Positions 2,630-48,813 are shown, counted from the stretch's first letter. The stretch is DNA of 64,000 nucleotides from Candidatus Anstonellaceae archaeon (GCA_038891035.1 JAWAEW010000006.1:2221-66220), one strand, 5' to 3'. Numbers and translations: made by a program. The notes: a model not told the origin generated them from the letters alone.

Positions 2630-3091
2630 TTAGGAGTGGTATTTGCCAATCAGTGGCTTCATTCCGTATTGTGTTTGTGGGAGCCCGTTTGGAGTTGTGT
2701 AAGATATTCGTACATCATATTCGTATGTCCCACCTACAGAGCCAGCGCCCGCACCTGAAAGCGGAATTATCCTTTGGTCTCCAGATGCGAGTACTGTCGG
2801 AGTAGAATATGAAGCATTGCCAACTGTAATGTTGGTAATTGTAAGGGTGCCAGCTGCATCTCTGTTTACTATCAAGATGCTCCCATTTCCAGAAGAGTCA
2901 AACGAGTGCTCAAGAATTCCAAAAGGCATGGCTTCTCCGCGCCAGTATGCATTTGACTGCGTAATTTTTGCATCAGATGCAAGCCCTGGGAAAAACCCAA
3001 GAAGAGCTATTGACACCAGTGCAATTATCAAAACCACTGCAAGCAACACAAGATACTCAGTTGCACCTTGCCCTTTCATATGAATATTCAT
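2630..3091 (-). CDS. archaeal type IV pilin-like protein (class III signal peptide), putative major pilin
   Basis: N-terminus MNIHMKGQGATEYLVLLAVVLIIALVSIALLG = basic residue + G, Q at +1, then ~22 hydrophobic residues (prepilin peptidase substrate pattern); mature part beta-rich with N-x-S/T sequons (NITVGNASYS). Confidence 0.65.
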   Translation of the reverse strand: MNIHMKGQGATEYLVLLAVVLIIALVSIALLGFFPGLASDAKITQSNAYWRGEAMPFGILEHSFDSSGNGSILIVNRDAAGTLTITNITVGNASYSTPTVLASGDQRIIPLSGAGAGSVGGTYEYDVRISYTTPNGLPQTQYGMKPLIGKYHS

Positions 3092-3213
3092 CTCATCCCT
3101 CCTGTTCGCCTTCGGGTTTTTAACCCTCTGTAGCAACATTCGAAAGTAGAATATAAAAAGCTTTTCGTTTGTCTTCAGCCAAAATTAAATAATAGCATGC
3201 AAAAAAACAGCAC

Positions 3214-4482
3214 ATGAAATATTTGTTGATATTTGGTCTGTGCTTGCTGTTTTTTAGTGGATGGCTTCATGCAGGCTATACGCAAAAGCTGCTGGTGCAA
3301 GTTTTTGACCAAGCACTAAGACCAGTAAGTGGTGCAGAGGTATATGTGGAGTATCAAGTAAACTCAGTGATCGGCTATGCCAAAACAAAACCAAAACTTA
3401 CATCTGAAAATGGAACTGCTGAGATTACATTCACAAGCTGGGAAGAGCTTGAGTCTCAAACAAAATATACCTACACTTTGTATGTAAAGTATGGCAGTGA
3501 ACTTAAGACTGCTAATTTGGTGGTGGAAAAACCGCCAAGAGATAGGACCTATAGCATGCAAGTTACTGCGTTTTTTGCAGTTGTGCATGTGCGCGATCAG
3601 ACTGGCAAGCCTCTTTCTGCAAAAATTACCATAGGTAATAAGACATTGATGACTGGTATTGGAAAGGATGCTGTTTTTCAGCTTCCTCCAGGCAAGTACA
3701 ATGTGAGGGCGGAAATAGATGGGACTGTGAAAAATGCTGATCTTATTCTTGACAAGGACCAGACAGTGGTAATAGAGATCCCACGCTACAAACTTGAAGT
3801 GCAAGTATTGGATGATTTCGCAAGGCCGCTTGAGGCTGAAGTAGAGCTTGAGACACAAAAGAAAAACACTATAGAAGGGCTAGTACGGTTCGAAAACCTT
3901 ACAAACGAAAGACCGCAGCTTACTGTCCGCTATAACCAAAGTTTCAAGCGCATGACTCTTAATTTGAAGACCGATGACAAAGTGCAAATAGTATTTGATA
4001 GGACTGCACCGAAAATTGCAGACATGTATCATAGCATACAAAAAAGCGGGGAAGCTGTGGTGAATGTTTACGTGCAGGAGCCTGGATCAAAGGCAAGTGG
4101 AATTGCAACCGTAGTTTTGTATTATGAAATTGGGAACATCACGTCCTCGGTTTCAGCTTACACGATTGGCTATAATACATATGAAGCCAAGATTCCTCCT
4201 GTCCCAAAGGATATGCCTGTCAGATACACAGTAAAAGTCACTGATAGGGAAGGAAACGAAGGAATTGCAAGCGGAACTTACACAATCCCAACTGAAAAGA
4301 AGAAGGATGAGAAAAAGAAGGAGGAGGGCTTATTTGACATGAATTTTGGTCTTGAACATTATGGGGCAGCATTTCTTTTCGTGCTTGCCATCATGTATGT
4401 GATAAAATATTATCAGAAAAAGAAAAAAGAGAAAGAACTGGAAAGAGAAATGGCAGAGATAACCTCGCCTCCGCCATCCTAA
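3214..4482 (+). CDS. secreted cell-surface protein with Sec signal peptide and C-terminal TM anchor + lysine-rich tail
   Basis: N-term MKYLLIFGLCLLFFSGWLHA signal peptide; repeated beta-rich modules; C-term 'AAFLFVLAIMYVIKYYQKKKKEKELE' hydrophobic anchor followed by K/E-rich tail. Confidence 0.55.
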   Translation: MKYLLIFGLCLLFFSGWLHAGYTQKLLVQVFDQALRPVSGAEVYVEYQVNSVIGYAKTKPKLTSENGTAEITFTSWEELESQTKYTYTLYVKYGSELKTANLVVEKPPRDRTYSMQVTAFFAVVHVRDQTGKPLSAKITIGNKTLMTGIGKDAVFQLPPGKYNVRAEIDGTVKNADLILDKDQTVVIEIPRYKLEVQVLDDFARPLEAEVELETQKKNTIEGLVRFENLTNERPQLTVRYNQSFKRMTLNLKTDDKVQIVFDRTAPKIADMYHSIQKSGEAVVNVYVQEPGSKASGIATVVLYYEIGNITSSVSAYTIGYNTYEAKIPPVPKDMPVRYTVKVTDREGNEGIASGTYTIPTEKKKDEKKKEEGLFDMNFGLEHYGAAFLFVLAIMYVIKYYQKKKKEKELEREMAEITSPPPS

Positions 4483-5434: not shown

Positions 5435-6400
5435 TCACTCCCATTCTATTGTTGCAGGTGGCTTACTCGTAACATCAAAAACCACGCGATTGACATATTT
5501 TTTCAACTCGCGTGTTATCCTATTTGCGATTGATTCCAGCACTGCCGGCGGAAGTGGTGAGGCTTTTGCAGTCATTCCGTCTATGCTTTCTACAGCACGT
5601 ATTACAACGGTGTAACCATAAGCGCGGGCATCCCCAAGCACCCCAACTGATTTCATTGGGAGAAGCACTGCAAAATATTGCCACGGAAGCTGGATTGTTC
5701 CTTCTGATGCAGCTTTTTCAACTTCTTCTTCAACAATTGCACAAGCTTGTCTGATTATTTCGATTTTTTCTTGCGTGATTGGTCCTAAGATTCGCACTGC
5801 CAGACCGGGTCCTGGAAAAGGCTGACGCTTACATATTTTTTCAGGCAAGCCAAGCAAGAAAGCTACTTTCCTTACTTCATCTTTGTAAAGCTCACGGAGA
5901 GGTTCTATAAGGAACATGCCCATCTTTTTTGGCAACCCACCTACATTGTGATGAGACTTAATAGTGTCTCTAAGACCTGCTCCAGATTCTATCCAGTCAG
6001 GAGCAATCGTGCCTTGCACTAAGAATTTTGCCTTTACCTTTTTTGCTTCTGCCTCAAAGACTTTGATGAAAAGCTTACCTATTATTTTTCGCTTTTTTTC
6101 CGGGTCGGATACACCTTTTAGTGTCGCAAGAAACTTTTGGCTTGCATCGATTATCTTGACATTCACACCTGCTTCGGCAAGAGATGATTTGACTTCTTCT
6201 GCTTCATTTTTTCTCATTAGACCGGTATCTACAAAAATACAATGGACTTTTTTACCCAAGGCTCTTGTCGCAAGGACTGCAGCCACTGATGAGTCTACTC
6301 CTCCCGAAACTGCAATTATTGCAGTTCCGTCCTTTGCCGATTTCTTGATTTCTTGAATTGCTTCTTGGATGAAAGCCTCAGGATCAAACATTCGTTTCAC
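5435..6400 (-). CDS. guaAB: GMP synthase, ATP pyrophosphatase subunit B
   Basis: PP-loop 'VSGGVDSS' and GMP-synthase C-terminal dimerisation domain ending 'ATIEWE'; 4-nt gap to subunit A. Confidence 0.85.
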
Positions 6401-7518
6401 CTTTTGTGCTTCTTGTGGTGTTGCTTTCTTCTAAGTAAAAGTAAAAATGCTGCTATTGCAAAGAAAAGTCCTGCGCCAAGCAAGGCAAAAATCAAATTGC
6501 TTTCAATATCGGACTTTAACCTATTTTCCTTTGTTGGCTCCTGCTGCTGTTGCTGTGGCTGGGTTTGGTTTATTGCCAAGCTGTCTTTGTCGTTTGAGAT
6601 TTTGGATTCAGACATTGGTTCTGTAGCTTCGTTTTCTATTATTAGCTCGTAAGATAGGTTCTGATATGAAAAAATATATTTTCCTGCTTCTGCTGCATTC
6701 AGATACGCTGTTCCATTTGAAGATGTAGTTAGAAATATTTGCCCTGATGGAGTTTCTGCCTGGATTTTTTCGCCTTCAAGAGGCTTGCTTCCATTGAGAA
6801 GCTGTAATGCAATAAGTGAGTGCGTTTTGTTTTCAGATGTGACAATTAAGGCAATTTTTGGCGGCTCTTGCGGCTTTGCTTGCTCAAGCACTACATTAAG
6901 CTGTGCAAAATCTGACAAATAAAGCTGTTGAATTTCCTCTTTTGGAATAAAGCCTTCTGCTTCAAATGCTATCCTATATTGCCCCTCTGGCAAAAAAGAA
7001 ATTAGGAAATATCCGTCCTTGTTTGGAATATTGTCCTTTTTGTGGTTGAGTCTTGCTATCACTTTTGAATCGGAGTACAATGTGATTGAAGAATTGGAAA
7101 AGTCTTTGGGTCCTTCTATTCTGCCCCAAATACCTGCATATGCGATCTGCTCGCGCATGATATAGGTGATGTTTCTATTCATATCTATCTGAACGAGATG
7201 GACGTGGGTGGGGTATCCACCTCTTTTCAGAATTACAAAATAGCTCCCAGGCAATACTTCAAATGTGGCAGTTCCGTCTTTTCCTGCTTTTGAAGAGGCA
7301 ATTTCTACTCCTTCGTGAAGGATGGAAATATTTGTTCCAACTGCAATTGTGTCAGGAGGGACAAGGACTTTTATTTGGAGAGTGTAGGAAGAAACCAAGG
7401 ATAGAAGGCAAAGCACTAAAGTCACCCATAATCTATTCACGAAACCACCTATCGAATCTAATTGTGCAACCAATAAAAGGCTACTGCCTCCAACATGCAA
7501 TAGTAATTGCCTCTGCAT
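6397..7518 (-). CDS. secreted surface protein with carboxypeptidase-regulatory-like beta domains, Q-rich linker and C-terminal TM anchor + basic tail
   Basis: hydrophobic signal-like segment [16 protein letters not shown] (true start may be internal GTG near 7440); C-term '[32 protein letters not shown]'; co-directional and directly downstream of four pilin-like genes. Confidence 0.5.
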
Positions 7519-7822
7519 GGCTGTTTCTCCAAACTGGAAAAGTAATGCTGGTCTTGCTGCCTCCTAAGTACGCGCAGGTTGAAAGCTCTTCTGCTTGAAA
7601 GCAGATGCCAGAAAGATTGGAGATAAGATGGAGCCTTTCGTTCAGAACTGCTTCATCTGAGAAAGATGAGGAATCGATTAGCACTTGCACGGCATCAAAG
7701 CACAGGAAAAGGTCTGGCTCGCTGGCGGTTTTGGCTTCAAAGGTATGAAGTAAAAGGGCAGCCTGCACTAAAAGGATAAATGAGGCTACTGCTTCTAATG
7801 ACATTGCAAATGCTTTTTTCAT
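7481..7822 (-). CDS. pilin-like protein with class III-type signal peptide
   Basis: Preferred start MKKAFAMSLEAVASFILLVQAALLL (KKA then hydrophobic stretch with E at +6); ORF track start 7882 overlaps upstream gene. Confidence 0.4.
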   Translation of the reverse strand: MKKAFAMSLEAVASFILLVQAALLLHTFEAKTASEPDLFLCFDAVQVLIDSSSFSDEAVLNERLHLISNLSGICFQAEELSTCAYLGGSKTSITFPVWRNSHAEAITIACWRQ

Positions 7823-8274
7823 GACACACACACCGTAAGAAGTGCAATTTTTCCTGAAAGAAAGGCAAGCCTTTTTGTGCAATAAGCTTGTTTCCCGTCA
7901 TTACCCGCAACCCAATCCATCATTGTTTCATCCTCAAAAGCAAGGGAAGCTTTGACTGATGACAGACCAAATGCATCTCTTATAGGCCTCAAATCAAAGT
8001 CTGTCTTGCCTTCATAAAGAGAATCCAAAAGGACATACGAAATCCTTATCGAAAGTAAAGTGTATGATACTGAATTTGAGTAATATGAGAAACTTTCTGA
8101 AGCAAAATAGAGAAGCTGTAGGAATGTCAAAAAGATGATGAGCGTTGAGAGGAACGCAATCGAGGCATCCAAAGAAAAAAACGCTTTAATGAAGTTTGAT
8201 TTGCACATAAAGCTTTCCCTCCGCATCCACTGAAGCGTTGTGAAGGAGCCTCTCACTGACATTTTTGTTGCCAC
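7819..8274 (-). CDS. pilin-like protein (class III-type signal peptide), start uncertain
   Basis: N-terminal region ...MCKSNFIKAFFSLDASIAFLSTLIIFLTFLQLLYF: basic residue + A followed by ~25 hydrophobic residues; several alternative in-frame starts (8262, 8226, 8208). Confidence 0.4.
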   Translation of the reverse strand: MATKMSVRGSFTTLQWMRRESFMCKSNFIKAFFSLDASIAFLSTLIIFLTFLQLLYFASESFSYYSNSVSYTLLSIRISYVLLDSLYEGKTDFDLRPIRDAFGLSSVKASLAFEDETMMDWVAGNDGKQAYCTKRLAFLSGKIALLTVCVS

Positions 8275-8533
8275 AGTGAAAAATTTGGCTCATATTTATG
8301 CAAAGCCACGAAAAGTCTTCATATGACTTTATGTGCGCCTTTGAAACGGCAGCAGTATCAAGCAAGAAAGCAGCTTTGGCAAGCTGGATTTTTTGGTAAT
8401 TTGCATTTATCTTTTGGGCTTCGCTTTCTACAAGATGATTTGCTGAAAGAGAAAGTATAGAGATGGCTAAAAGTAGGGCAAAAAAAGAGACAAGGGCTTC
8501 AATTGAGGATTGGCCACGAAATGTTGGCTGCAT
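8186..8533 (-). CDS. pilin-like protein with class III signal peptide
   Basis: MQPTFRGQSSIEALVSFFALLLAISILSLSA: RG|Q cleavage-type motif, E at +5, 20-residue hydrophobic helix. Confidence 0.55.
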   Translation of the reverse strand: MQPTFRGQSSIEALVSFFALLLAISILSLSANHLVESEAQKINANYQKIQLAKAAFLLDTAAVSKAHIKSYEDFSWLCINMSQIFHCGNKNVSERLLHNASVDAEGKLYVQIKLH

Positions 8534-9083
8534 TAAAACTTACCTCCTCTTCCGGAAGGCGAAATGCTGCACCTTGCCCTAAATGTTCTACAAAAATGGA
8601 AAAACCAATCGAAGGAAGATGAATACTTTGCTGGCTTAAATCTATATAGATTGACTTTAGGCATTCGCTGCTTGAGATGTGATGGGTGCTTTTTGGTAGG
8701 ACTGGTTCTTTGAGGCTTTCCATTTCTTCTGACACTAGTCGAATTTCATCGAAAGAGGGTTGGCCGCACCAAAGCTTCACCGAAAAACCTGCTTGTATTA
8801 TTTCTTGCTCAAGATTTATGAGTGCTTGGTGCACTTGCTTTTTTGCTTCCGCATATGAGTCAGTTCTGGCGGCAAAGGAAATTAAGATGCCTTTTTCTGC
8901 AGCTTCCGATGCTGCAGCATATATTGCTTTTCTGATGGCAAATGCCTCAAGCTCCACTAATTTATATTTCTCAACAGAAAATGCTGGCTTTTTTGCCTGA
9001 AGCGACAGTGAAGCAAAAGAAAGCAAAGTGAATAGGAAGATAGAGGCAACAAAAAATGTAAACAGACCTCTTGTCATCTCCAA
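8499..9083 (-). CDS. pilin-like protein with class III-type signal peptide
   Basis: MEMTRGLFTFFVASIFLFTLLSFASL: RG followed by hydrophobic helix; first gene of a four-gene overlapping operon. Confidence 0.45.
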   Translation of the reverse strand: MEMTRGLFTFFVASIFLFTLLSFASLSLQAKKPAFSVEKYKLVELEAFAIRKAIYAAASEAAEKGILISFAARTDSYAEAKKQVHQALINLEQEIIQAGFSVKLWCGQPSFDEIRLVSEEMESLKEPVLPKSTHHISSSECLKSIYIDLSQQSIHLPSIGFSIFVEHLGQGAAFRLPEEEVSFNAANISWPILN

Positions 9084-9086: not shown

Positions 9087-10127
9087 TTACGCAAGCTCTT
9101 CTACAAGCTTTATAAGATAAGAGATTGTTTTTTCTATATCTTCAATCGCGCATACTGCAACGTTTGAATGAATATAGCGTGTTGGGACATTAATTGAGAT
9201 TGAAGGTATCCCTCCTTTTTCTCCATATACTGAAGCCGCATCAGTTGCACCACCCTCAATAACTTCAATTTGGTATGGTATTTTGTTCTTCTTTGCAACA
9301 GAGATGCATTTTTCCTTCATAATTGCATCAGCAACGTTGCCTCTTCCTCCTGCTTCTACCAAGCAGATTGCCGGGCCTTTAAAGAGGTGTATTAGTGCTT
9401 CATCCTCTGTCATTTCTGGATGGTCTCCGGCAATTGCTGTGTCAATCGCAATAAATGCAGAAGGTTCGAGATTGTAGGCCGCAATCATCGCTCCTTTTCC
9501 GAAGGTTGATACTTCTTCTTGTGCTGTACCTACTAGGACTACGTTTTTGTGTTTGACTTTTTTGGCCACTTCAAGTAAAATATAGCATCCGACTCTGTCA
9601 TCGAGTGCCTTTCCTGTGACCAGCTTGTTGTTGAGCATTTTTGTGCTGATGTCAAAGCAGATTGGGTCGCCAATTTTGACGCCCATTTTTTCAGCTTCTT
9701 TTCTGTTTTTTGCCCCAATGTCGATAAAGAGGGATTTGTTATCATATGCCATTTTCATATCTTCTGGTTTTTGCATGTGAGGAGGCTTGCTTCCGATCAC
9801 GCCGTATATATTACCCTTTTCAGTTTGGATGACCACACGTTGGTTGACAAGCACGCGGTTGTCAATTCCACCTACTTTTATGAAGCGAATAAATCCCTTG
9901 TCATTGATGAATTTAACCAGCATACCTATTTCATCCATATGGGCACCAAGCATAAGCGGTTTTTTCTTTGCAGCTGGAGAATGCGCAATCACATTGCCGA
10001 ATCTGTCGATTTGCGCCTTATAGCCTAATTTTGAAAACTCAGAATGCATAAGGCTTGCAATTTCTTTTTCATTCCCAGGCACGCCGAAGGATTCAGTCAG
10101 TTTGCAAAGCAGGTCCATATCTATCAT
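9087..10127 (-). CDS. M42-family aminopeptidase (TET/FrvX-like)
   Basis: 346 aa from internal start MIDMDLL; motifs 'GAHMDEIG', 'ALDDRVG', 'GGATDA' typical of M42 glutamyl aminopeptidase family. Confidence 0.8.
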   Translation of the reverse strand: MIDMDLLCKLTESFGVPGNEKEIASLMHSEFSKLGYKAQIDRFGNVIAHSPAAKKKPLMLGAHMDEIGMLVKFINDKGFIRFIKVGGIDNRVLVNQRVVIQTEKGNIYGVIGSKPPHMQKPEDMKMAYDNKSLFIDIGAKNRKEAEKMGVKIGDPICFDISTKMLNNKLVTGKALDDRVGCYILLEVAKKVKHKNVVLVGTAQEEVSTFGKGAMIAAYNLEPSAFIAIDTAIAGDHPEMTEDEALIHLFKGPAICLVEAGGRGNVADAIMKEKCISVAKKNKIPYQIEVIEGGATDAASVYGEKGGIPSISINVPTRYIHSNVAVCAIEDIEKTISYLIKLVEELA

Positions 10128-10173
10128 AAAACCACCCGAATATGTGTGAAATGGCAAAGAAAGTTAAAAAACA

Positions 10174-11085: not shown

Positions 11086-11766
11086 CTAATCTTTGGAATT
11101 GATAAGGTAGGCGCCCGTAATTAGGATCACTATTACAAGAGCTGTCAAGGACACGAGAGGATTTTCTTTCAAATATTCTATTGGATCCTTGTGGTTTCCT
11201 TGCGGCTTTAGAGCATCCAAAAAATCTGGGCTTGGATTTGGCTGGCTGGAAAAAATTTCGGGTGGTGAAGTAAAGTCAAGCTTGACTGATGTTACATTTT
11301 CGATATGCAAGTCAAACTTTGAATTTTCAATTTGCTCAGTAGGCAAAATTTCGGATTCGATTGAGATGCTTGCTGGTGTTGAATTCCCAACTGTAATTAT
11401 GGCAGGAACTTCTGAAAAAAGAACTGAATCGTTTGAGCAGCCGCTATTTTCTATTTTGCAAAAAAGAAATACCTCTGCCTGCTTGCTTTGCGTTGAATTA
11501 GTTATGAATTTTAGGGATTCTGAAGATGAACTAATTTTGACTTTTACTAATAGATTTTCTGACTGAAGCTTATGCAAAGATTGGTTTGGAATGGCCCAAT
11601 ATATTTTTACACTTCCGCTGTATGGCTGGTTTGGTATAAGACCTTCGTAAGCAAAATCAAGCTCATAGTCAACTAACTTATCTAATGAAGAGAAATTGAT
11701 TGCCGTTTCTGAGCTGAAAGAGGCAATCATAAGGTATGGGAGGAATAAGCTCGCTACACTGGTCAT
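11086..11766 (-). CDS. secreted protein with C-terminal TM anchor (hypothetical)
   Basis: Preferred start MTSVASLFLPYLMIASFSS (signal-like) avoids overlap with pheS stop; C-term 'LVSLTALVIVILITGAYLINSKD'; S/N-rich extracellular part. Confidence 0.45.
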   Translation of the reverse strand: MTSVASLFLPYLMIASFSSETAINFSSLDKLVDYELDFAYEGLIPNQPYSGSVKIYWAIPNQSLHKLQSENLLVKVKISSSSESLKFITNSTQSKQAEVFLFCKIENSGCSNDSVLFSEVPAIITVGNSTPASISIESEILPTEQIENSKFDLHIENVTSVKLDFTSPPEIFSSQPNPSPDFLDALKPQGNHKDPIEYLKENPLVSLTALVIVILITGAYLINSKD

Positions 11767-11791
11767 AATTGCTAAATTGCCTGATGAATAT

Positions 11792-13207
11792 TTAATAGTG
11801 CGCGTGCACTTTCTGCGACCTAAGCCATCCAACTTTGCTTTTGTAAAACTCACGAATATCATCTATATCATAAAGAAGCATAAGCGGTCTCTCAAGCGAA
11901 AGCCCCCAGGCTAAGACTGGATAGCGGTCGCAAAGAGGGATGGAAACTTCTGGTCTGAAAATTCCTGCACCGCCCAACTCAATCCACTGCCTCCTTTTTT
12001 CGAAATAAACAGAGATTTCAAGTGATGGCTCTGTGTAAGGGAAATATGATGGCTGAAAGCGAATTTTGTCAAATCCGAGCTTTCGATAGAATTCCTTTAA
12101 GCATCCCAGGAGATGTCGAAAGGTCGCCCCCTCCCAAACTACTATGCCTTCAACTTGGAAAAATTCTGCAAGATGCTTGTAGTCCGTTGCTTCGTTTCTG
12201 AAGACTTTTCCTATGCAGAAGTACTTCTTCGGCTGCTTTTCTTTGCAAAACTGATAAAGATAGTGGGCTGAAATTGAAGTGGTGTGGGTCCGCAATACGA
12301 GCTTTGAAGCAAGGGAAGGCTGCCAACTTCCACCCCAGTATTTCTCATGGACTTTTTTGACTCTTTGGACTAAATGTGGATCTGAGGGAAGCGCACCTTC
12401 TTCTTTTAGATAAAATGTGTCTGCGAGGTCTCTGGCAGGATGGTCCTGCGGCTGGAAAAGTGCGTCGAAATTCCAGAAGCTGGACTGGACTTCGTCACCT
12501 ATCATCTCCTCAAACCCCATTTGAGCAAAAATTAGGCTTATTTGCTTTCTGAGCTGCGATATTATGTGTCTGCAGGCTACAAATGGTATTTCTACAGGGG
12601 TATGAACATCGTAAGGTCTGAAAGTTGTGTTTTTCCAGCTTCCAGAAAGAAGCATCTCCCGAGTCAATGCATTAACTTGAGAGAGTGGCAGCTCCTGTGG
12701 AGGTTTTGCTGCCGTAGGCTCAAAAAATATCACTTTTGAGACTATAGTTTCCACGAGTTTTCTTTTTATTAGAATGTCAAGCTGTTGGGGATGTGGATTG
12801 AGGCCGAGCTTGGCCTGTTCTAATGCGTGCCTTGGAGGATATGGGCTTGGCGGGGAGGAGACCAGGATCAGTTTCTGCCCATCTATTTTTATCCATCCGT
12901 TTTTGATAGCCCATGGAAGCCCTATCGATTTTTCTTCTTCAGAAAGTGATGAAATCATTGTATTTTGCATTGCTTTTATTGCAACTTTTTCTTCTGGAAA
13001 TCCAAATGAAAGGAAGCTTTCCCCTTCCTTTGTAAGCCTTATGTGCTTTTGGGTTTGAACGGTTATTGAAACCAGGCCCTTTTCCTTGAGTACTTGGCCA
13101 AACGAAAGTATCGCGTCTTCTGGAAGTCCTGACTCTGCTGCAAGCTCCTTTGAGCTTTTCTTGCCAGAAAGCAAAGACAATATTTTAGATTCAATTTGAT
13201 GGAACAT
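11792..13207 (-). CDS. pheS: phenylalanine--tRNA ligase alpha subunit (archaeal type)
   Basis: class II aaRS motifs 'FRPE', 'GLSLERPLMLLYDIDDIREF'; N-terminal winged-helix region; preferred start MFHQIESKIL avoids overlap with downstream gene. Confidence 0.85.
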   Translation of the reverse strand: MFHQIESKILSLLSGKKSSKELAAESGLPEDAILSFGQVLKEKGLVSITVQTQKHIRLTKEGESFLSFGFPEEKVAIKAMQNTMISSLSEEEKSIGLPWAIKNGWIKIDGQKLILVSSPPSPYPPRHALEQAKLGLNPHPQQLDILIKRKLVETIVSKVIFFEPTAAKPPQELPLSQVNALTREMLLSGSWKNTTFRPYDVHTPVEIPFVACRHIISQLRKQISLIFAQMGFEEMIGDEVQSSFWNFDALFQPQDHPARDLADTFYLKEEGALPSDPHLVQRVKKVHEKYWGGSWQPSLASKLVLRTHTTSISAHYLYQFCKEKQPKKYFCIGKVFRNEATDYKHLAEFFQVEGIVVWEGATFRHLLGCLKEFYRKLGFDKIRFQPSYFPYTEPSLEISVYFEKRRQWIELGGAGIFRPEVSIPLCDRYPVLAWGLSLERPLMLLYDIDDIREFYKSKVGWLRSQKVHAHY

Positions 13208-13217
13208 GAAGATAGCC

Positions 13218-14069
13218 TCATTTTTCAAGCCGGTTGAAATAATATAAGCTTGATGCAGCTGCTGCAAAAAGCAGGAGTGCTGCAAGCCCGTCTGGCCCAA
13301 GGAAAAGCCGCAAGACCACTGCCTGGGCTTCCTTGAAGAATTCTATTGCTTCAGTTTCAAGTGGGAATTCAATTTCAAAGGTAAATTGGAATTTGGAAAG
13401 CATGTCCCCCTTCCAACTGAATACTCTTTCTTTGCCTATGTAATAGCGCAAATTGGAAGTATAATCATACCTGAATTGTGATTCGTCTTCTTCTGGCACA
13501 TTGGAAGGTAAGCTGGAAAAGTAAATCTTTTCTGCAAGTGGAGGTATTGCAAATGCAATGTTGGTGTTTGGTGGCAGAATCAAATCACCTGTTCTAGTTT
13601 GTTCAAAGGATAAAGCAGGAGTTTGTATAGAGTATTTGGCGGTTCTTGGTTTGTACCAATCAACTCGGACAAGGCCAGAGCCTTCTTTTGATGCAGGAAC
13701 CTCATAAGCCAAAATCAATGTTGCATGACATAAATCAAGGTATGGGTTGCAGCGCTCTATCGGTTGAGGAATCACACGCAGGTTCTTGATATCTGCATAG
13801 GCTCTGCTTATATGGTGCCTCATTTCTGAAAGGCCGGTTCTTTCTCTCCAAGTGGCCAAATCTGAAAATACTGCTCTTGTGTCTTCGTAGATCTGCCTGG
13901 AAGACCCATTCATCATAATTGCGAATTTTTCTTCTACATTTGCACTTCCATCCTGGTTTATTCTTATAAAAACTGAAATAGAGCGCATAGTAAAATCGGA
14001 ATGTATAGGTGAAAGGATGATTAATAAAAGTAGAAAGACTTTCACAAAAAGCTGGAATTTTTGCCTCAT
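13218..14069 (-). CDS. secreted protein with signal peptide and C-terminal TM anchor (hypothetical)
   Basis: N-term MRQKFQLFVKVFLLLLIILSPIHS; C-term 'GLAALLLFAAAASSLYYFNRLEK'. Confidence 0.45.
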   Translation of the reverse strand: MRQKFQLFVKVFLLLLIILSPIHSDFTMRSISVFIRINQDGSANVEEKFAIMMNGSSRQIYEDTRAVFSDLATWRERTGLSEMRHHISRAYADIKNLRVIPQPIERCNPYLDLCHATLILAYEVPASKEGSGLVRVDWYKPRTAKYSIQTPALSFEQTRTGDLILPPNTNIAFAIPPLAEKIYFSSLPSNVPEEDESQFRYDYTSNLRYYIGKERVFSWKGDMLSKFQFTFEIEFPLETEAIEFFKEAQAVVLRLFLGPDGLAALLLFAAAASSLYYFNRLEK

Positions 14070-14106
14070 GTAAGGACTATTGCCACTATTTATTTAAATT
14101 TGCGGC

Positions 14107-14793
14107 GTGCCAAATGCAACTGTGAGAGCCGTAACATACTTAGGACACAACTCATTCGAAGTGCGATTAGGCAATATAGTTATGCTTTTCAGCCCTGTGG
14201 TTGCAGAGCAGATAGGCCAGCACAGAAGACTGATCAAATCTGCTCTTAATCCAAGAAATGTAAGGGAATGTGATATGATTTTCCTCCCAAACGAGGAGCC
14301 GACGAACTGTGAGCCGCCTACGATAAAAGAGGTTGCTGAAAGATGCTTTTCGATTGTGATTGCCCCTAAGCCTGCACTTTCAAAAATCGACATATCAGAA
14401 AGGTTTAAGGTCGAAGTTCATGTGCAAGATAAATTTACTTTGAAAGGGATAGATGTAGAGGTTATTAGGGCAGTGCATCCCCAGTCTCAATATCCGGTTG
14501 GCTATCTTTTGAAAGGAGACGGACTGAGCCTTTATTATGCAGGCGACACCTACAGCTTTACGGACATGGGAAGAATTAGGTGTGATGTTGCAATTGTGCC
14601 TATTGGTGGCGGCGCGACTATGGACCCTTTTGCTGCAAGCAGTGCCGTAAAAGAAATGAGACCAAAAATTGCAATTCCCATGGGATACAACACGTTCGAG
14701 AAGAATATGCAAGAGCCCAGCGAATTTGCAGATGATTTGGGAAGCGGTACAAAAGGAGTGGTGCTAAAGGTTGGGCAGCAAGTTCGGCTTTGA
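14107..14793 (+). CDS. MBL-fold metal-dependent hydrolase (UPF0173/UlaG-like)
   Basis: 228 aa; 'YYAGDTYSF...AIVPIGG' pattern of beta-lactamase-fold hydrolases. Confidence 0.65.
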   Translation: MPNATVRAVTYLGHNSFEVRLGNIVMLFSPVVAEQIGQHRRLIKSALNPRNVRECDMIFLPNEEPTNCEPPTIKEVAERCFSIVIAPKPALSKIDISERFKVEVHVQDKFTLKGIDVEVIRAVHPQSQYPVGYLLKGDGLSLYYAGDTYSFTDMGRIRCDVAIVPIGGGATMDPFAASSAVKEMRPKIAIPMGYNTFEKNMQEPSEFADDLGSGTKGVVLKVGQQVRL

Positions 14794-14837
14794 TTTTTAA
14801 TATTTTGCATATCAATTCAGAACAAGAGGTTGGTTTT

Positions 14838-15242
14838 ATGATAACAGGAATAAAAATAAACAAAGTGGAAGCAAGGCGTGACAGCGAAAGCGAAATTATT
14901 GGGCTAAATATCAATATTACGATTGACTCGCTTAATGTAAAAAATAACCAAATTGAGATAGGCTTTACTTATTCTGCAGCTTATACAGAAGGCGTAGGGG
15001 AATTAAAAATGAGTGGCATCTTATATGCTACAGAGGAAGCAAAACTTGCCAAAGAGATAAGCGATAAATGGGTAAAGGAAAAAAGACTTCCAGACGCTTA
15101 TGCTGAAATGGTGCTGAATGCGCTTAATTATGCTTGTGGGACAAATGGAGTATTTGCAGTAAGAATAGTGAATCTTACTCCTCCTATTGTTCCTCCGAAG
15201 ATAACTCTTAATCCGCAGCCACCGCAACAGCCGAAGAAATAA
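14838..15242 (+). CDS. hypothetical protein
   Basis: ATG at 14838 preceded by GAGGT Shine-Dalgarno-like sequence; no recognisable family; Pro-rich C-terminus. Confidence 0.4.
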   Translation: MITGIKINKVEARRDSESEIIGLNINITIDSLNVKNNQIEIGFTYSAAYTEGVGELKMSGILYATEEAKLAKEISDKWVKEKRLPDAYAEMVLNALNYACGTNGVFAVRIVNLTPPIVPPKITLNPQPPQQPKK

Positions 15243-15243
15243 A

Positions 15244-16980
15244 TCAAAGCCTGCTGCCAACTGAAAATGCCTTAACACCAAGGAGCATGCTTCTTATTGC
15301 AAATGCAAATGAAGGAAGTGAAAGAATAATAGAAAGGGAAGGCGGTGCAAGGGTATAGGCAAGGGCGTACAGACCGGAAAGAAGTAGGAAGGAAAAGGCG
15401 CAAAGAAAATATATTAAAATTTCATATTTTTGGCCGGTGCTCGAGCGCCCAACCATCTTTGAAATCGACGAAAATGAAGAATATAAGTTGACTAGAAAGA
15501 CTGCAGAAAAAAAGAAAAAGAGCATGAAAAGGAAAATGAAAAATGAGCCGATTATGCTAAAATGTGGCTCTTGCATCAAAAATATCCCACCAAAGCAAAG
15601 TGAAGACAAAAGTCCTGCTATTGCAGCATTTTTAGAGGTAAGTGCAAGTTGCTCGCGAGTGGAGACTGCTCCTGAAAGCTGAGAAATTGAAGGAAGCTTT
15701 TCCACTACACGATAATAACGCGAGGATTCTGTAAATGCGCGCCTCATGCCTAATATTGTCATTCTTATCATGCGCATATTTTTGATTAAGAGTGGTGGGC
15801 TTAGGCGCAAAAGGACGCTGTAAATTTCGTTCTCTTTATTCAAAAGCCATGCTGAAAAAAATGAGGAAATAATTATTGAGAAACCAAAGACTCCAAGAAG
15901 CTGAGACTGCAAAATGCGATCTGACACTCCTTGGCTTATCAAAAGAAGCGAAAGCTCAGAAAGAGGTAGCATCACTGCTGAACAAAGACCTGCACTGCGA
16001 CCGGAAAAGCCGGCAAAATACGAAGAGATACCTGCCGAAATGAATCTTATGACTAGAGAGATAATAAGGAAAATTGAAAGCAGAAGCACGTCCGAAAATA
16101 GAGAAAAAAGATTTATCATCAAACCTATAGAAAAGAAGAAAAAGGATGCAAAAAGGAAGTTGAATGGCTTGATTTTTTCTTCTATTTTTCTTGATTCAAA
16201 TGAACCTGCGATTGTACTTCCAGCAAGGAAAGCACCTACAGAAAACGAAAGCCCGATTGCTTCTGAAATATAACCTATCATAAGTGCAAGACTTACTGTC
16301 CCTAAAATCAAAAGTTCATCTGAATGAGAAATCATGGAAAGGAAGCGGGAGATTATGCGCGAAAGGACTAGATATGCAAAAACAAAAGTTGCAATGACGC
16401 GTATGAGGGAAATTGCAAGGGCATAGTCGCTTTGTATTGTGGGCCTTGCAATCAGACCCAAGATAAAAACAGTGAGCAAGTCCTCTATTATAATGATTGA
16501 AAACACTAGAAGGGTTTCTGGTCTTCTCATCTTGCCTGCAGATTCAAGCAACTTGACTATTATTGGTGTAGATGAGAATGATAGCGCAATTGCGATTAGA
16601 GTGGAGGTCTGTGCTGGAAAACCTATCATAAGCATCAATGTATTAGTCACAATGTAAGTGATGCCTATTTTCAGTGCAGTTGCAAGGAAAACTAGCACGC
16701 CTGACTGTGTTAGGCGAACGATTGAGAATTCTAGCCCTATACCAAAAAGAATCAAAGCTGAGCCAATCACTGCAAATACTTCTACTGTGGCAGGATTTGA
16801 AATCAGAAGGCTGCTAAAGCGGAAGCCCATCCATTCTAATTCTGCAAGAGGGGAGTATGGGCCAACCAGCATTCCTGCTATAAGCACTCCCAAAATGAGA
16901 GGTAGACCTAGCCTCTCAAAGATCAAAGCAAAAAACATAATCACAGTAATGCTAATGCCTACTGCAAATGCAGGCTCCAT
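15244..16980 (-). CDS. cation:proton antiporter (CPA/Kef-NapA-type Na+/H+ exchanger family) membrane protein
   Basis: 578 aa, >12 predicted TM helices; N-terminal 'GLPLILGVLIAGMLVGP' motif typical of CPA2 exchangers. Confidence 0.65.
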   Translation of the reverse strand: MEPAFAVGISITVIMFFALIFERLGLPLILGVLIAGMLVGPYSPLAELEWMGFRFSSLLISNPATVEVFAVIGSALILFGIGLEFSIVRLTQSGVLVFLATALKIGITYIVTNTLMLMIGFPAQTSTLIAIALSFSSTPIIVKLLESAGKMRRPETLLVFSIIIIEDLLTVFILGLIARPTIQSDYALAISLIRVIATFVFAYLVLSRIISRFLSMISHSDELLILGTVSLALMIGYISEAIGLSFSVGAFLAGSTIAGSFESRKIEEKIKPFNFLFASFFFFSIGLMINLFSLFSDVLLLSIFLIISLVIRFISAGISSYFAGFSGRSAGLCSAVMLPLSELSLLLISQGVSDRILQSQLLGVFGFSIIISSFFSAWLLNKENEIYSVLLRLSPPLLIKNMRMIRMTILGMRRAFTESSRYYRVVEKLPSISQLSGAVSTREQLALTSKNAAIAGLLSSLCFGGIFLMQEPHFSIIGSFFIFLFMLFFFFSAVFLVNLYSSFSSISKMVGRSSTGQKYEILIYFLCAFSFLLLSGLYALAYTLAPPSLSIILSLPSFAFAIRSMLLGVKAFSVGSRL

Positions 16981-17020
16981 AGCATTAGGTTAAATATCAA
17001 AAATTTAAAAACAGGCTGAA

Positions 17021-17350
17021 TTAGCATGAGATGGTAGTTCCAGGTGGAGCAAGAAGTTGCAAGACTTTGGGGGAGACAGTTGCAATCAAAATGCCTATCA
17101 AAGCTCCTGTAAGGCAAGAGGTTGCCCACACATTTGCGCGAGCCCGCGTTTCTGCTCCCATCATTTGACCTGTTGCATAAATGACTGCAGAAAGAACAAT
17201 CATCGTCATGGCGGCAATAGGTATTAAGTCTTTAATTCCGGTGCAAAGTTGCTGTAAGGCGTCTTTGAGTTTCTGTGTGGGTGGTTGAGAGGTAGCAACG
17301 ATAGTTGCCACTAAAAAAACCAATATGATAGCTAACACTTTTTGACGCAT
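17021..17350 (-). CDS. small secreted membrane protein, VirB2/TrbC-pilin-like topology
   Basis: 109 aa: signal peptide MRQKVLAIILVFLVATIVATS, then two hydrophobic helices separated by short polar loop (GQMMGAETRARAN). Confidence 0.4.
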   Translation of the reverse strand: MRQKVLAIILVFLVATIVATSQPPTQKLKDALQQLCTGIKDLIPIAAMTMIVLSAVIYATGQMMGAETRARANVWATSCLTGALIGILIATVSPKVLQLLAPPGTTISC

Positions 17351-17411
17351 TTATACACCAATTGTGTGTTGGAAAAAACAGTTTTTAAAGTATGAAGTCT
17401 GAGGTTAAGCT

Positions 17412-18161: not shown

Positions 18162-18165
18162 GAGG

Positions 18166-18705
18166 ATGTTTGAAAGGATAGAGAGGGATACGTACATGCT
18201 TTCTTCCAAAGGCAGGTTGTGCAGCACAATTTATCTAATCCAAGAAGACAAAAGACGCATTTTGATTGATTCTGGTGATGGTTGGGTTCATCTTGATTTT
18301 GTACCTGATTTATGCATTCTTACGCACGGACACTTTGACCATACTGGAGGAGTTAAAAAAAATTGGAAGAGGGTGCTTATTCATAGGGATGAATTTGGTT
18401 TTTCTGGCCCTTATATTAGGATTCCGCCAAATGCTGTACCAAATCCCATGAGGCCTATTAGGTTTGGTTCGCATCTTTTGGAGTTTATCCACACACCAGG
18501 GCATACTGCAGGAAGCATATGCATATTTGACAGAAGCACTGGTGTTCTTTTTTCAGGTGATACGAAGTTTGCTGAAGGTGGATTTGGAAGGGTGGATTTA
18601 GGAGGTAACTGGGAGAAACTTCAGAAAAGTCTGCAAAAGATTGAAAAGATACCCTACAGGCTCCTTTGCCCTGGCCACGGAGATGTGGAGGAGAGACATG
18701 ATTGA
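18166..18705 (+). CDS. MBL-fold metallo-hydrolase (glyoxalase II-like)
   Basis: 'LTHGHFDHTGG' metal-binding motif, 'TPGHTAGS'. Confidence 0.7.
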   Translation: MFERIERDTYMLSSKGRLCSTIYLIQEDKRRILIDSGDGWVHLDFVPDLCILTHGHFDHTGGVKKNWKRVLIHRDEFGFSGPYIRIPPNAVPNPMRPIRFGSHLLEFIHTPGHTAGSICIFDRSTGVLFSGDTKFAEGGFGRVDLGGNWEKLQKSLQKIEKIPYRLLCPGHGDVEERHD

Positions 18706-19321: not shown

Positions 19322-19428
19322 CAAGCAAAGATTTAACAATTGTTATGTGAATATGCAAGATTATGCTGCCTTGCTCTGAGGTTCATTGGAAGATACTGCC
19401 AGCAATCTCCAGACATGTGGCAGTTGCA

Positions 19429-41408: not shown

Positions 41409-41422
41409 ATTAAATTCGCCGA

Positions 41423-45546: not shown

Positions 45547-47949
45547 ATGGAGATTGTGACAAGAAGGGCAATGCTTTTAGATGCGGATTATACGATAGTT
45601 GAAGGCAGGACTGTTGTTAGGCTGTTGATGAAAGGAAAACGTTTTTTTCGGCTTTATGACTATTATTTGCCTTATTTTTACTTGGATGCCCCAAAAAATG
45701 CTGAAGAGCTGATAAGAAAGGTTCGCGTTCAAAATGAAGGAAGACAAGTCACTCCAGTAAAACTTGAATGGGTTAAAAAAAGCGTTTTTGGCCAGGAGCG
45801 TGACATCTGGAAAGTGTACTGCGAGAGGCCTTCGGATGTGCCGAAAATAAGCAAAGCACTGCCTTATCCTTCTTATGAAAACGCAATTCCATTCGGAAGG
45901 AGATATTTGATTGATAAGGGGCTCTCTCCATTTACTACACTAGTTTACAAAAGGAAGGGGAAGTTTCTCATTGAGATAAAGAAAATTCTTGACAGAAAGG
46001 TCCCGCTTAGGACCATGTCTTTTGACATAGAAACCTACAATCCGCAGGGAACTCCACGGCCCGACCAAGACGAAGTGATTATGATAAGCTATGAAATTGG
46101 GCATACGGGGGAAAGAAAGGTAATCACCAGCAAAGACGTCAAAAGAGATTTTGCAATCGTATGCAAGGATGAAAGGCAGATGATTGAAAAGTTTCTTCAA
46201 GTGATCAGGGAAAATGACATTGAAGTGCTGTTTGGTTACAACAGCACTGTGTTTGATTTGCCATATCTTAAGGCAAGAGCAGATGCTAACGGATTGAATT
46301 TTGGGATTGGACGGGATGGTGGACCTTTTAGGATGAGAAAGCATGGGATAAGGAATGTTGCAAAAATCGTAGGCAGGATACATGTGGATCTTTATCCACT
46401 TGTCCGATTTATGGGTTTTATAGGAGCATTCAAGGTGAGCAAATATAGCTTGGAAAATGCGTATGAAGAACTAACTGGAAAAAAGAAGTTGATGGTTCAG
46501 AAACTGGATATTTGGAAGATGTGGGAGGACGAAAATCTTGTAGGCAAGCTTGCAGACTATTCGCTTTTTGATGCGCAGGCAACCATGGAGATAGGTAAGA
46601 TTTTGCTTCCACTGGAAATAGAAATGAGTAATTTGACTCGACTGCCTCTTTTTGACACAGTAAATGCAACGGCTGGCCAGCTTGTCGAATCTTTGTTGAT
46701 GCACAAAAGCACACAGAATAATGCAATAATTCCTAACAAGCCTGAGGATGCAGTTGCGCATGAAAGAGAGCTTGGTCCAATAAAGGGGGCTTTTGTCAAA
46801 ATCCCGCAGCCCGGGATTTATGAGAATCTAGTAGTGTTTGACTTTAGAGGTCTTTACCCTTCTATTATCACCTCACACAATATTGACCCTTTTACCTTGA
46901 ATCCACCAAGCTCGGTTCCGGACTCTGACTGCTATATTGCACCGAATGGAAGTCGCTTTTTGAAGAGCCCGAAAGGACTTATTCCTATGGTGCTTGAGGA
47001 ATTGATAGAGATGAGAAGCAAGCTCAAAAAGCGGTTGAAAGAGATTCAAAAAGACACACCGGAATACGAAATGCTTTTTGCACGTGTGCAGTCGCTAAAA
47101 ATACTTGCAAATTCATATTATGGATATCTGGCTTATCCGCGCTCAAGATGGTATTCCAGAGAATGTGGAGAGGCAGTGACGGCCTGGGGAAGGCATTACA
47201 TTCAAGATACTATAAGAAAAGCAACGGAAGCGGGTTTCGAAGTGCTATACAGTGATACTGACTCTGTTTTTCTTTTGCTTGGGAAAAGAATGAGAGAGGA
47301 TGCTCTTTCCTTTATGGAAAGCATCAATAGGCAGTTGCCTAAGGATATGGAATTGGAGCTTGAGGGATTTTATCCGAGGGGGCTTTTTGTAACTAAGAAA
47401 AATGCAGAAGGCGAAGGAGCCAAGAAAAAATATGCTTTAATAGGGGAGGATGGAAGGATAAAAATACGTGGCTTTGAGCTTGTGAGACGCGATTGGTCGA
47501 ATATAGCAAAGACAACACAAAAAAGAGTGCTTGAGGCAATTTTGAAGCATGGTAGCAAGGAAATGGCTGTTAAGATTGTGAAAGAGACGATCGAACAGCT
47601 GAAAAAAGGAAATGTTCCGATCGATGATCTGGTAATTTATACACAAATACGTAAAGACCCTCGGAAATACGATGTTAAATCTCCTGAGCTTTCTGCAGCA
47701 CAAAAGGCAATAGCTGCAGGCATTCCGATAGAAAAGGGGAGTGTAATTGGATATGTGATTACAAGAAGAGGGACGAGCATCTCGGAGAAAGCAACCCTTG
47801 CAGAGCTTGCAACAGATTATGATCCAAACTATTATATACAAAACCAGGTGCTTCCTGCAGTAATGAAGATATTGCAGGAGCTAGGATACAGCGAGGATGA
47901 TTTGAAATTTGGCGGGAAGCAGACCGGCCTCTCCTCTTTCTTAGAATAA
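45547..47949 (+). CDS. polB: DNA polymerase, family B
   Basis: exo motifs 'FDIET' and 'YNSTVFDLPYL', polymerase motifs 'SYYGY' region and 'YSDTDSVFL'; 800 aa, no intein. Confidence 0.9.
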   Translation: MEIVTRRAMLLDADYTIVEGRTVVRLLMKGKRFFRLYDYYLPYFYLDAPKNAEELIRKVRVQNEGRQVTPVKLEWVKKSVFGQERDIWKVYCERPSDVPKISKALPYPSYENAIPFGRRYLIDKGLSPFTTLVYKRKGKFLIEIKKILDRKVPLRTMSFDIETYNPQGTPRPDQDEVIMISYEIGHTGERKVITSKDVKRDFAIVCKDERQMIEKFLQVIRENDIEVLFGYNSTVFDLPYLKARADANGLNFGIGRDGGPFRMRKHGIRNVAKIVGRIHVDLYPLVRFMGFIGAFKVSKYSLENAYEELTGKKKLMVQKLDIWKMWEDENLVGKLADYSLFDAQATMEIGKILLPLEIEMSNLTRLPLFDTVNATAGQLVESLLMHKSTQNNAIIPNKPEDAVAHERELGPIKGAFVKIPQPGIYENLVVFDFRGLYPSIITSHNIDPFTLNPPSSVPDSDCYIAPNGSRFLKSPKGLIPMVLEELIEMRSKLKKRLKEIQKDTPEYEMLFARVQSLKILANSYYGYLAYPRSRWYSRECGEAVTAWGRHYIQDTIRKATEAGFEVLYSDTDSVFLLLGKRMREDALSFMESINRQLPKDMELELEGFYPRGLFVTKKNAEGEGAKKKYALIGEDGRIKIRGFELVRRDWSNIAKTTQKRVLEAILKHGSKEMAVKIVKETIEQLKKGNVPIDDLVIYTQIRKDPRKYDVKSPELSAAQKAIAAGIPIEKGSVIGYVITRRGTSISEKATLAELATDYDPNYYIQNQVLPAVMKILQELGYSEDDLKFGGKQTGLSSFLE

Positions 47950-48813
47950 ATATGTCAAGATGTCCCCAAAGAGCAAGGCAAAAAGAAGACCAAGCAAAAG
48001 ATGTGGGAGAAAAAATGGCATTTTTGTATAGACAATCACTTCTCTTATACGGGCTGCTTTAAGCTTGGCAATTTGTTCTTTTGTAATCACAGGCTTAAGC
48101 GAAAGCTTTCTTACAAGTTGCTGATTCATAAGCTCAAGCGCAAGCACGTCTTCCTCTTGCAGCAAAGAGACTTTCACTCTTTGTGCCATTGCTTCCTTGA
48201 TTTCTTTTTTGAAGAATGAGAAAAAAAGCAAGCTTACGAAAAGGAAAGCGATCAACAAAATAAATGCTTGAGAGATTCTGCCTGGCAACATGAACAAAGC
48301 GATGTTGAAGGCGGCAAATGACAAGGATAACGCAGCAAGCCCAACAAATTTTTCAAGCGAAAAGGTGATTTTGCCTTTCTTTGCAAGCTCTGTGACATAT
48401 GGAAGAAAACGTAAAAGCATATGCAAAATGAAAAATATGCTTGCCGGGACAAGCACTGAGATGATAAATGGATATGGTGCGGTTTTTCCTTCTGCAAAAA
48501 AGGGCTGTGGAGCATATGGCAAGGCAATAGCAATTGCTGAAAGCACAAACATGTCTGCGCCCCCGATTTGACCTGCTTTGTAAAGGAGGAAAGAGAGAGC
48601 AAAAATTGCGGCACCAAACGCAAAAGCATGAAAGGTGGCTGGACTGAAAAATATAAAGTTCAAAAATATCGCAGCCGCTAAAAAAGCGTAGACCAAGTTG
48701 TTTGGAACCCATTTGTTGTTAAATAAGTCAAAATAAGCAGATGCTGCAGTGAACAAAACAGAAACAATTACCCTAATTTCAATGCCTGGAATTTGGCTTG
48801 GCGAAGAAAACAT
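47941..48813 (-). CDS. prepilin/preflagellin peptidase (A24 family, PibD/FlaK/EppA-like)
   Basis: 290 aa polytopic membrane protein with the two catalytic Asp contexts 'SAYFDLFNNKWVPN' and 'GQIGGADMFVL'. Confidence 0.6.
   Translation of the reverse strand: MFSSPSQIPGIEIRVIVSVLFTAASAYFDLFNNKWVPNNLVYAFLAAAIFLNFIFFSPATFHAFAFGAAIFALSFLLYKAGQIGGADMFVLSAIAIALPYAPQPFFAEGKTAPYPFIISVLVPASIFFILHMLLRFLPYVTELAKKGKITFSLEKFVGLAALSLSFAAFNIALFMLPGRISQAFILLIAFLFVSLLFFSFFKKEIKEAMAQRVKVSLLQEEDVLALELMNQQLVRKLSLKPVITKEQIAKLKAARIREVIVYTKMPFFLPHLLLGLLFALLFGDILTYLF

Follow-up and report, generated by a model that had tools for sequence, protein, structure and literature searches.

The stretch of DNA analysed here, hereafter referred to as the window, spans 64,000 nucleotides of a metagenome-assembled genome (MAG) of a Candidatus Anstonellaceae archaeon (GCA_038891035.1 JAWAEW010000006.1:2221-66220), a representative of the Micrarchaeota among the DPANN archaea, and harbours archaeal Cdc6/Orc1, family B DNA polymerase, Spt4, PcrB, SepF and geranylgeranyl reductase genes. 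Its minus strand carries a block of five genes, labelled A to E, of which A, B, C and D encode small pilin-like proteins and E a surface protein (Table 1). The [G + C] content is uniform across the window, at about 41-45%, and the A-E block is consequently not a compositional island. Protein A is deposited at NCBI as ‘MAG: hypothetical protein QXN37_02350 [Candidatus Anstonellaceae archaeon]’. Members of the Micrarchaeota, DPANN archaea of very small size, live fixed to archaeal hosts, and this contact is thought to be pilus-mediated; to our knowledge, the parts of DPANN or Micrarchaeota pili other than the ATPase, the platform and the major pilin are unannotated. We propose that A-D probably constitute a lineage-specific minor-pilin-like set of the Micrarchaeota, to which E would add an S-layer-like or adhesive partner, the motor presumably being encoded elsewhere.

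Table 1. Genes of the A-E block and related features of the window (positions counted from the first nucleotide of the window)
Feature	Coordinates	Strand	Product	Start and N-terminus
Gene A	8499..9077	-	192 aa; largest pilin-like protein; 22-residue hydrophobic segment, alpha/beta globular domain	ATG; leader MTRG, then LFTFFVASIFLFTLL
Gene B	8186..8533	-	115 aa; pilin-like	ATG, with GGAGG Shine-Dalgarno upstream; leader MQPTFRG, then QSSIEALVSFFALLL (QSSIEAL onwards)
Gene C	7819..8208	-	129 aa; pilin-like	ATG after GGAGGG; leader MCKSNFIKA, then FFSLDASIAFLSTL (FFSLDAS onwards)
Gene D	7481..7822	-	113 aa; pilin-like	Leader MKKA, then FAMSLEAVASFILLV (FAMSLEAV onwards)
Gene E	6397..7440	-	347 aa (373 aa if ATG 7518); CarboxypepD_reg surface protein	GTG 7440 (most likely) after AGGTGG
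Candidate major pilin	2630..3079	-	149 aa; PF04021 Class_IIIsignal 20.4 bits	Leader MKG, then QGATEYLVLLAVVLIIALVSIALLGFF
A24 prepilin (class III signal) peptidase	47941..48813	-	290 aa; Pfam Peptidase_A24 32.6 bits vs cutoff 26.5	

Independent gene calls, taken from the Logan contig SRR27730023_47798 (63.5 kb, same sequence as the window), place products of 192, 115, 129, 113 and 373 amino acids at the positions of A, B, C, D and E. The five minus-strand genes listed in a preliminary description of this stretch are real and its coordinates for B and D stand, whereas its starts for A (9083, a TTG located two codons upstream of the ATG at 9077), C (8274) and E (7518) were revised. The start of C at 8208 puts the K-A motif, followed by FFSLD, at residue 9, on which the gene caller and the orthologues concur; the span from 8274 simply corresponds to the longest open reading frame (ORF). 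The end-to-start overlaps formerly reported for the four pilin-like genes are otherwise confirmed, with 35 nt between A and B, 23 nt between B and C and 4 nt (ATGA) between C and D, and the related locus L005 displays the same overlapping style. Gene E most likely starts at the GTG at 7440, leaving a gap of 40 nt and no overlap with D. Since all six E orthologues begin with an aligned Sec-type signal peptide, the start at 7518 and the resulting D/E overlap are probably artefacts, and a protein of 347 amino acids is likelier than the one of 373 first described at 6397-7518, of which the beta-rich, C-terminally anchored nature is retained in the form of a CarboxypepD_reg beta-sandwich and a C-terminal transmembrane (TM) helix. 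Shine-Dalgarno-like sequences precede A, B, C and E, and a weak one only is found before D. The possibility that the five ORFs are chance open frames or mis-annotations of an AT-rich compact genome draws on their lack of database annotation and on nothing further. It is opposed by about 35 full-length homologues of A and 56 of D, by the gene order kept in related loci, by the Shine-Dalgarno-like sequences before four of the genes and by an AlphaFold2 (AF2) model of A with a predicted local distance difference test score (pLDDT) of 92.8; the conservation data refute it, and we consider its probability practically nil.

The N-termini of A-D associate a leader of 4-9 residues with a stretch of 22-27 hydrophobic residues, the maximal Kyte-Doolittle value over windows of 17-19 residues reaching 2.1-2.6; the basic residue followed by G or A and by a hydrophobic helix, previously noticed in all four proteins, is thus indeed present. 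Stop-to-stop ORFs of 60 amino acids or more offer 1546 candidate starts; when all of these were scanned for K/R-G/A/S within the first 14 residues and, after it, a strongly hydrophobic stretch containing no more than one charge, only A-D, the pilin encoded at 2630-3079 and one antisense non-coding ORF were retained, so that the cluster formed by A-D is no chance feature. Conservation of this motif was examined in 34 A, 8 B, 7 C and 51-52 D sequences (alignment A7 of the D family comprises 52). Position -1 is occupied by G or A in every sequence counted (34/34 for A, 8/8 for B, 7/7 for C and 51/51 for D), while K or R occupies position -2 in 29/34 A, 7/8 B, 4/7 C and 32/51 D sequences and, where it does not, is often found at -3. 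The first residue after the presumed cleavage site is F in 29 of the 34 A and 49 of the 51 D sequences, F or Y in all seven C and Q in all eight B; S or T is found at +3 in each B sequence and S in each C sequence. An acidic residue follows in three of the families, as E+5 in B (8/8), D+5 in C (7/7) and E+6 in D (52/52); in A it is never present at +5 (0/34), this position always being A, V, I, L, F or M. Outside this context the A-D proteins are only 24-40% identical, and the cleavage-site context of all four families is, to judge from these alignments, under strong purifying selection. It agrees with the criteria established for archaeal prepilins, namely G, A or S at -1 and a charged residue at -2, the acidic +5 being found in a subset only; substrates of EppA-type peptidases have conserved Q+1 and E+5 (Pohlschroder & Esquivel, PMC4371748). 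Among A-D, the EppA/DUF361-like signature (Q+1, S/T+3, E+5) is restricted to B, the three others having F at +1; the Q+1/E+5 motif is also displayed by the pilin encoded at 2630-3079.

Homologues of A were searched exhaustively with HMMER among 1.84 billion representatives, yielding the roughly 35 full-length sequences mentioned above (23-40% identity, E-values down to 8.5e-36); a word-indexed search with A alone as query matched nothing other than A itself. Their alignment has the consensus N-terminus M..KG followed by FLSFxLAAVFLLAL and reveals W103, C104, G105, P128, C139 and G158 as invariant or nearly so, the two cysteines C104 and C139 being invariant. With a profile of seven D sequences, the 56 homologues of D were retrieved at E-values of 1e-46 to 6e-20 and with no weak tail; each named one is a ‘hypothetical protein’ from an Anstonellaceae, Micrarchaeota or Micrarchaeia MAG. 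Each of the four proteins A-D stands for a family of its own, specific to the Micrarchaeota and with no sequence relative in Pfam, NCBIfam or the PDB, and the four families are unannotated and new to curated databases. Four cysteines are conserved in D and two near the C-terminus of C, and these conserved cysteine pairs in A, C and D support an extracellular location of A-D; N-X-S/T sequons are also found in the window's own A, B and D proteins. Using hhalign, B, C and D align with each other across their N-terminal ~30 residues only, in register, and similarity limited to the N-terminus is the usual situation for type IV pilins. A recent duplication at the origin of A-D was considered and rejected, as BLASTP finds no paralogy among them. 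The best matches of B among PDB profiles are archaeal flagellins (9v95 and 7txi; N-terminal alignment, E 0.41-0.81, not significant) and that of C is the filament subunit Iho670 of Ignicoccus (5tfy; N-terminal region, E 0.17, not significant). The PF04021 Class_IIIsignal (DUF361) model is not reached by any of A-D, the best score being that of one B orthologue (E 3.4). With its 34-sequence alignment, A is modelled by AF2 at the pLDDT given above and a predicted template modelling score of 0.78, with a helix over the hydrophobic segment (residues 3-28), a break at 29-32 and helices at 33-70 and 74-95, the remainder consisting of a beta-sheet plus helices at 109-122 and 137-142.

Two genes of the window located outside the block complete this picture. 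The A24 peptidase encoded at 47941-48813 possesses candidate catalytic Asp residues in YFD and GGAD motifs and would be the processing enzyme of A-D and of the pilin encoded at 2630-3079. This pilin lies 3.3 kb from the block, beside which it is also found in L005, L012 and L013; four orthologues score 20-24.4 bits against PF04021, the L005 one (24.4 bits) exceeding the cutoff of 23.7. The N-terminus of this pilin hardly varies between genomes, being nearly the same in L012 and L013, and L013 contains a tandem duplicate. It is probably the partner of A-D, encoded outside of their block.

The related loci are labelled L005-L008 and L010-L016, L012-L014 being GTDB species representatives named Anstonellaceae and Micrarchaeota. 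The order M42 aminopeptidase-A-B-C-D-E-guaA is present in every related locus spanning it (L005 and L012-L016, as in the window), which answers positively to the suggestion, made in the preliminary description, of looking for the same five-gene block in related genomes. A GATase gene follows guaA in this recurring order (L005/L006/L007, L012-L014, L015 and L016). The block is kept in L005/L006/L007 even though A is only 24% identical there, and, with frames that overlap or abut, its order holds across A proteins of only 24-31% identity. The partial contigs L008, L010 and L011 carry matching portions of it, and one further short ENA contig, for which gene calls only are available, shows an A homologue directly preceded by the M42 gene. 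L016 has other genes upstream (CTP synthase, DEAD helicase, MscL) and yet an intact M42-ABCDE-guaA; in the other long loci the wider surroundings are also syntenic, including the VirB2-like pilin, NhaP, PheRS and an RNase-Z-like gene. On the evidence of this synteny, the conservation of the block is in part that of vertical inheritance in compact genomes and not that of a dedicated operon. The existence of an operon ending in E, as initially claimed, is not demonstrable: the five genes belong to a packed co-directional run from 14069 to 4864 which includes housekeeping genes, guaA being located about 5 nt past the stop codon of E.

Wherever the upstream side of A is visible (the window, L005, L010, L012-L016 and a further contig), the M42 (TET-type) aminopeptidase gene (9087-10157 of the window, minus strand) immediately precedes it; in L005 the two genes overlap by 4 nt, and in L016 they stay linked despite different genes further upstream. 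A functional partnership of this enzyme with the block was discarded, as its family is one of cytosolic enzymes and a signal sequence is absent, and its position is left as unexplained synteny.

Protein E matches the Pfam family CarboxypepD_reg (PF13620; E 1.2e-10, 42.1 bits vs cutoff 32.3) and has eight N-X-S/T sequons. A Sec-type signal peptide precedes its CarboxypepD_reg-like beta-sandwich domains, which are followed by a Q/P/E-rich linker and then by the C-terminal TM helix with its His/Lys-rich tail. The Sec-type N-terminus, the C-terminal TM helix and the His/Lys tail are all kept in the six E orthologues, and E follows D in every locus reaching that far. Two known anchoring signals were rejected for this C-terminus: LPXTG models of Pfam and NCBIfam remained below cutoff (13.8 and 14.5 bits, E 0.04-0.06), and the PGF motif of PGF-CTERM anchors does not occur in the sequence.

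Another surface protein of this kind is encoded close to the block, at 3214-4482 on the plus strand. It contains 422 amino acids, Big_1/CarboxypepD_reg domains and a C-terminal TM helix, and its gene is divergent from that of the pilin at 2630-3079. The pair formed by this pilin and the anchored beta-sandwich protein (2630-4482) is conserved in L005, L012 and L013 and represents a second such unit in the vicinity of the block. In L015, the place occupied by the pilin/surface-protein pair in other genomes is taken after the GATase gene by a mobile-element-like island (13070-19533 of that locus) with a nucleotidyltransferase, a reverse transcriptase domain, a ParE toxin and a phage-type integrase.

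The comparative evidence given by the motifs, the conservation of the block, the peptidase and the pilin supports the initial view of four class III-signal proteins and a C-anchored beta-rich protein as a minor-pilin module apart from its motor, and a minor-pilin-like nature of A-D is the reading that we favour. Several observations nevertheless weigh against it. Nothing significant was found with A-D in Pfam or NCBIfam, nor with the orthologue sets of B, C and D in Pfam, and searches of PDB profiles with A, B, C and D, including the 52-sequence profile of D, returned non-significant matches only (E 0.17-0.9). Neither a T2SSE-type ATPase nor a T2SSF/TadC/FlaJ platform gene occurs in the 64-kb window or within 10 kb on either side of the block in eight related loci. 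The -2 residue is not always charged, being N, S or Q in 3/7 C sequences and A, S, Q or T in 16/51 D sequences, and the conserved Glu of D is at +6 rather than +5. The first helix of the A model is interrupted at residues 29-32, as opposed to the canonical continuous alpha-1, and the single-sequence AF2 model of B (pLDDT 57) is unreliable. Protein E has its own Sec signal and C-terminal anchor, and nothing ties it physically to a filament. Finally, the block forms part of an extended and conserved stretch of housekeeping genes that all point in one direction, so that its synteny and tight spacing say little in favour of a dedicated operon. As to the motor, the preliminary description had stated that no ATPase or platform gene lies nearby, which holds for the whole 64-kb window, but it had overlooked the A24 peptidase and the PF04021-type pilin located there. 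Two type IV pilus systems, one of which is of the Methanococcus (Epd) type, were reported in Micrarchaeota along with a single FlaK-like peptidase (Golyshina et al., PMC5498576), which makes the presence of the machinery elsewhere in the genome plausible.

The absence of significant matches to pilin family models or solved pilins, and that of an ATPase or platform gene nearby, would also fit with A-D being uncleaved type II signal-anchor or Sec signal-peptide proteins, forming with E a Micrarchaeota-specific envelope complex (e.g. for S-layer anchoring) that has nothing to do with type IV filaments; the K/R-G/A residues would then represent a positive-inside n-region. A possible signal-peptidase-I-like site after the hydrophobic segment of A, between SLQA and KK, and the topology of E, which resembles that of an S-layer stalk protein, point in the same direction. 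However, the small residue that 100/100 sequences invariably have at the exact point where the hydrophobic segment begins is not something that a positive-inside n-region needs. The conserved F or Q at +1 and the invariant buried acidic residue located 5-6 positions into the membrane helix in three independent families argue in the same way against such proteins, the hydrophobic segments of 22-27 residues are too long for Sec h-regions, and B bears the Q+1/S+3/E+5 signature of EppA-type pilins (PMC4371748). We therefore regard this alternative as quite improbable.

Returning to the minor-pilin set, the closest parallels are found in archaeal type IV pilus loci, which commonly comprise fast-evolving minor-pilin sets with conserved cysteines and an S-layer-like protein with a single C-terminal TM helix (Makarova, Koonin & Albers 2016, PMC4858521). 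As in these sets and in EpdA-D of Methanococcus maripaludis, A-D are adjacent, small, fast-evolving class III-signal proteins with conserved cysteines, and they are co-encoded with a secreted beta-rich protein with a single C-terminal TM helix, here E. The Q+1/E+5 residues of B and of the pilin at 2630-3079 recall the Epd pilus in particular, and Epd-type (clade 1/‘system 1’) machinery is reported in Micrarchaeota (PMC5498576). On the other hand, in contrast to these sets, A-D match no existing Pfam or NCBIfam pilin model and none of the loci seen has a gene for an ATPase, TadC or EppA beside the A-E block, which lies between the M42 aminopeptidase gene and guaA; the peptidase of the window is a 290-aa A24 enzyme of unassigned subtype. 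Minor pilins accompanied by an S-layer-like protein, and pilin genes apart from motor genes, are already described in other archaea; as this general architecture is already known, A-E are not a new kind of system and extend known biology. The A-D proteins and E nonetheless provide concrete candidates for the priming, the tip or the adhesive end of a DPANN pilus.

If A-D act as minor pilins, they would be inserted into the membrane with their short basic leader, which the A24 peptidase encoded at 47941-48813 may remove after [K/R]-[G/A], and the hydrophobic N-terminal helix would keep the mature proteins anchored in the membrane. Packing of these helices could join A-D into a small hetero-oligomer priming and/or capping a type IV filament, mainly composed of the PF04021-type pilin encoded at 2630-3079 and presumably built by an ATPase/TadC platform encoded elsewhere. 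The N-terminus of the adjacent subunit would be neutralised, as in bacterial pilins, by the conserved acidic residue that B, C and D carry at +5 or +6, and A, the largest protein and never acidic at +5, might occupy the apex, by analogy only. In the least certain step, E would be a Sec-exported, glycosylated and C-anchored beta-sandwich protein acting as an S-layer-like envelope partner or as an adhesin. Cleavage, assembly, position in the filament and function of A-D are all predicted here from the comparative data.

The same motif evidence is consistent with A-D forming a short envelope-embedded pseudopilus, similar to the Sulfolobus bindosome (BasABC) or to the pseudopilus of bacterial type II secretion systems (T2SS), which would position or present surface proteins such as E or span the S-layer. 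Protein E is always co-encoded and is membrane-anchored rather than secreted, the pilin and its CarboxypepD_reg C-anchored partner at 2630-4482 form a second pair conserved in L005, L012 and L013, and small class III-signal proteins of non-pilus envelope assemblies are documented in the literature (bioRxiv 10.64898/2026.04.22.720090). Like BasABC, A-D would then be small class III-signal proteins needing no long filament. BasABC are however encoded with an ATPase and a membrane protein (BasEF) and serve class III-signal sugar-binding proteins, neither of which is seen here: no class III-signal substrate-binding protein, dedicated ATPase or membrane protein is linked to the block. A pseudopilus and a set serving the tip or base of a pilus cannot be told apart by sequence alone, and we hold the former to be unlikely.

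Within the minor-pilin reading, the number of genes and the absence of an acidic residue in A invite a comparison with bacterial systems. In the type IV pilus and the T2SS of bacteria, the GspK/PilK subunit, which ‘invariably lacks’ the +5 Glu, occupies the apex of a four-subunit tip-initiation complex (bioRxiv 10.64898/2026.02.14.705861). The A-D genes resemble GspH-I-J-K, FimU-PilV-W-X and PilH-I-J-K in being four clustered pilin-like genes, one of which (A) encodes a protein without an acidic +5. They have no detectable sequence homology with the GspI/J/K families and do not match the H-I-J-K gene order, the subunit without an acidic residue being encoded first and not last as in GspHIJK/PilHIJK, and the Glu of D is at +6. 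Protein E is a C-anchored beta-sandwich protein and not a beta-propeller of the PilY1 type with a free C-terminal strand, and a complex formed by A-D is putative. A further similarity concerns ComGD-GE-GF-GG of the Com pilus of Bacillus and Streptococcus, which are likewise four consecutive small (~110-190 aa) pilin-like proteins encoded in overlapping frames; the best NCBIfam match of B is ComGE, over its N-terminal 50 residues and not significant (E 0.022, 14.8 bits vs cutoff 49). In the Com system, one operon also includes the ATPase, the platform and the major pilin, which are absent here. The block could possibly be, although we find it doubtful, an archaeal counterpart of the bacterial four-subunit tip-initiation complex, with A apical and B, C and D acidic, nucleating an Epd-type pilus in DPANN archaea. 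If so, type IV filaments of both domains would share the principle of priming by a minor-pilin quartet, whether through common ancestry or through convergence, and the block would offer a handle on the pili by which Micrarchaeota contact their hosts. The A-E locus hence represents a test case for whether minor-pilin-primed assembly is common to Archaea and Bacteria.

A few other genes of the window were noted. A VirB2/TrbC-like conjugative-type pilin of 109 amino acids is encoded at 17021-17350 (minus strand), with matches to NCBIfam TrwL (E 3.7e-6), Pfam TrbC (5e-4) and T4SS_pilin (9e-4) that are all below cutoffs, and is found at the same position in L005-L007; it is possibly a component of a Ced/Ted-like apparatus for DNA transfer. 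Two adjacent multi-pass membrane proteins of 332 and 172 amino acids (34158-35675, minus strand) have no significant Pfam match. The gene at 54004-56328 (plus strand) encodes a protein of 774 amino acids that is rich in Cys at its N-terminus (CxxC-like pairs) and lacks both a signal peptide and a Pfam match. A protein of 1345 amino acids (37389-41426, minus strand), also without Pfam match, begins with a Sec-type signal peptide, contains 11 sequons and ends in a TM helix with a basic tail; it is probably a giant surface protein. Two further secreted proteins with C-terminal TM anchors and no family assignment are encoded at 11086-11862 and 13218-14069 (both minus strand), and the anchor of the former (NPLVSLTALVIVILITGAYLINSKD) is nearly identical in L012-L014.

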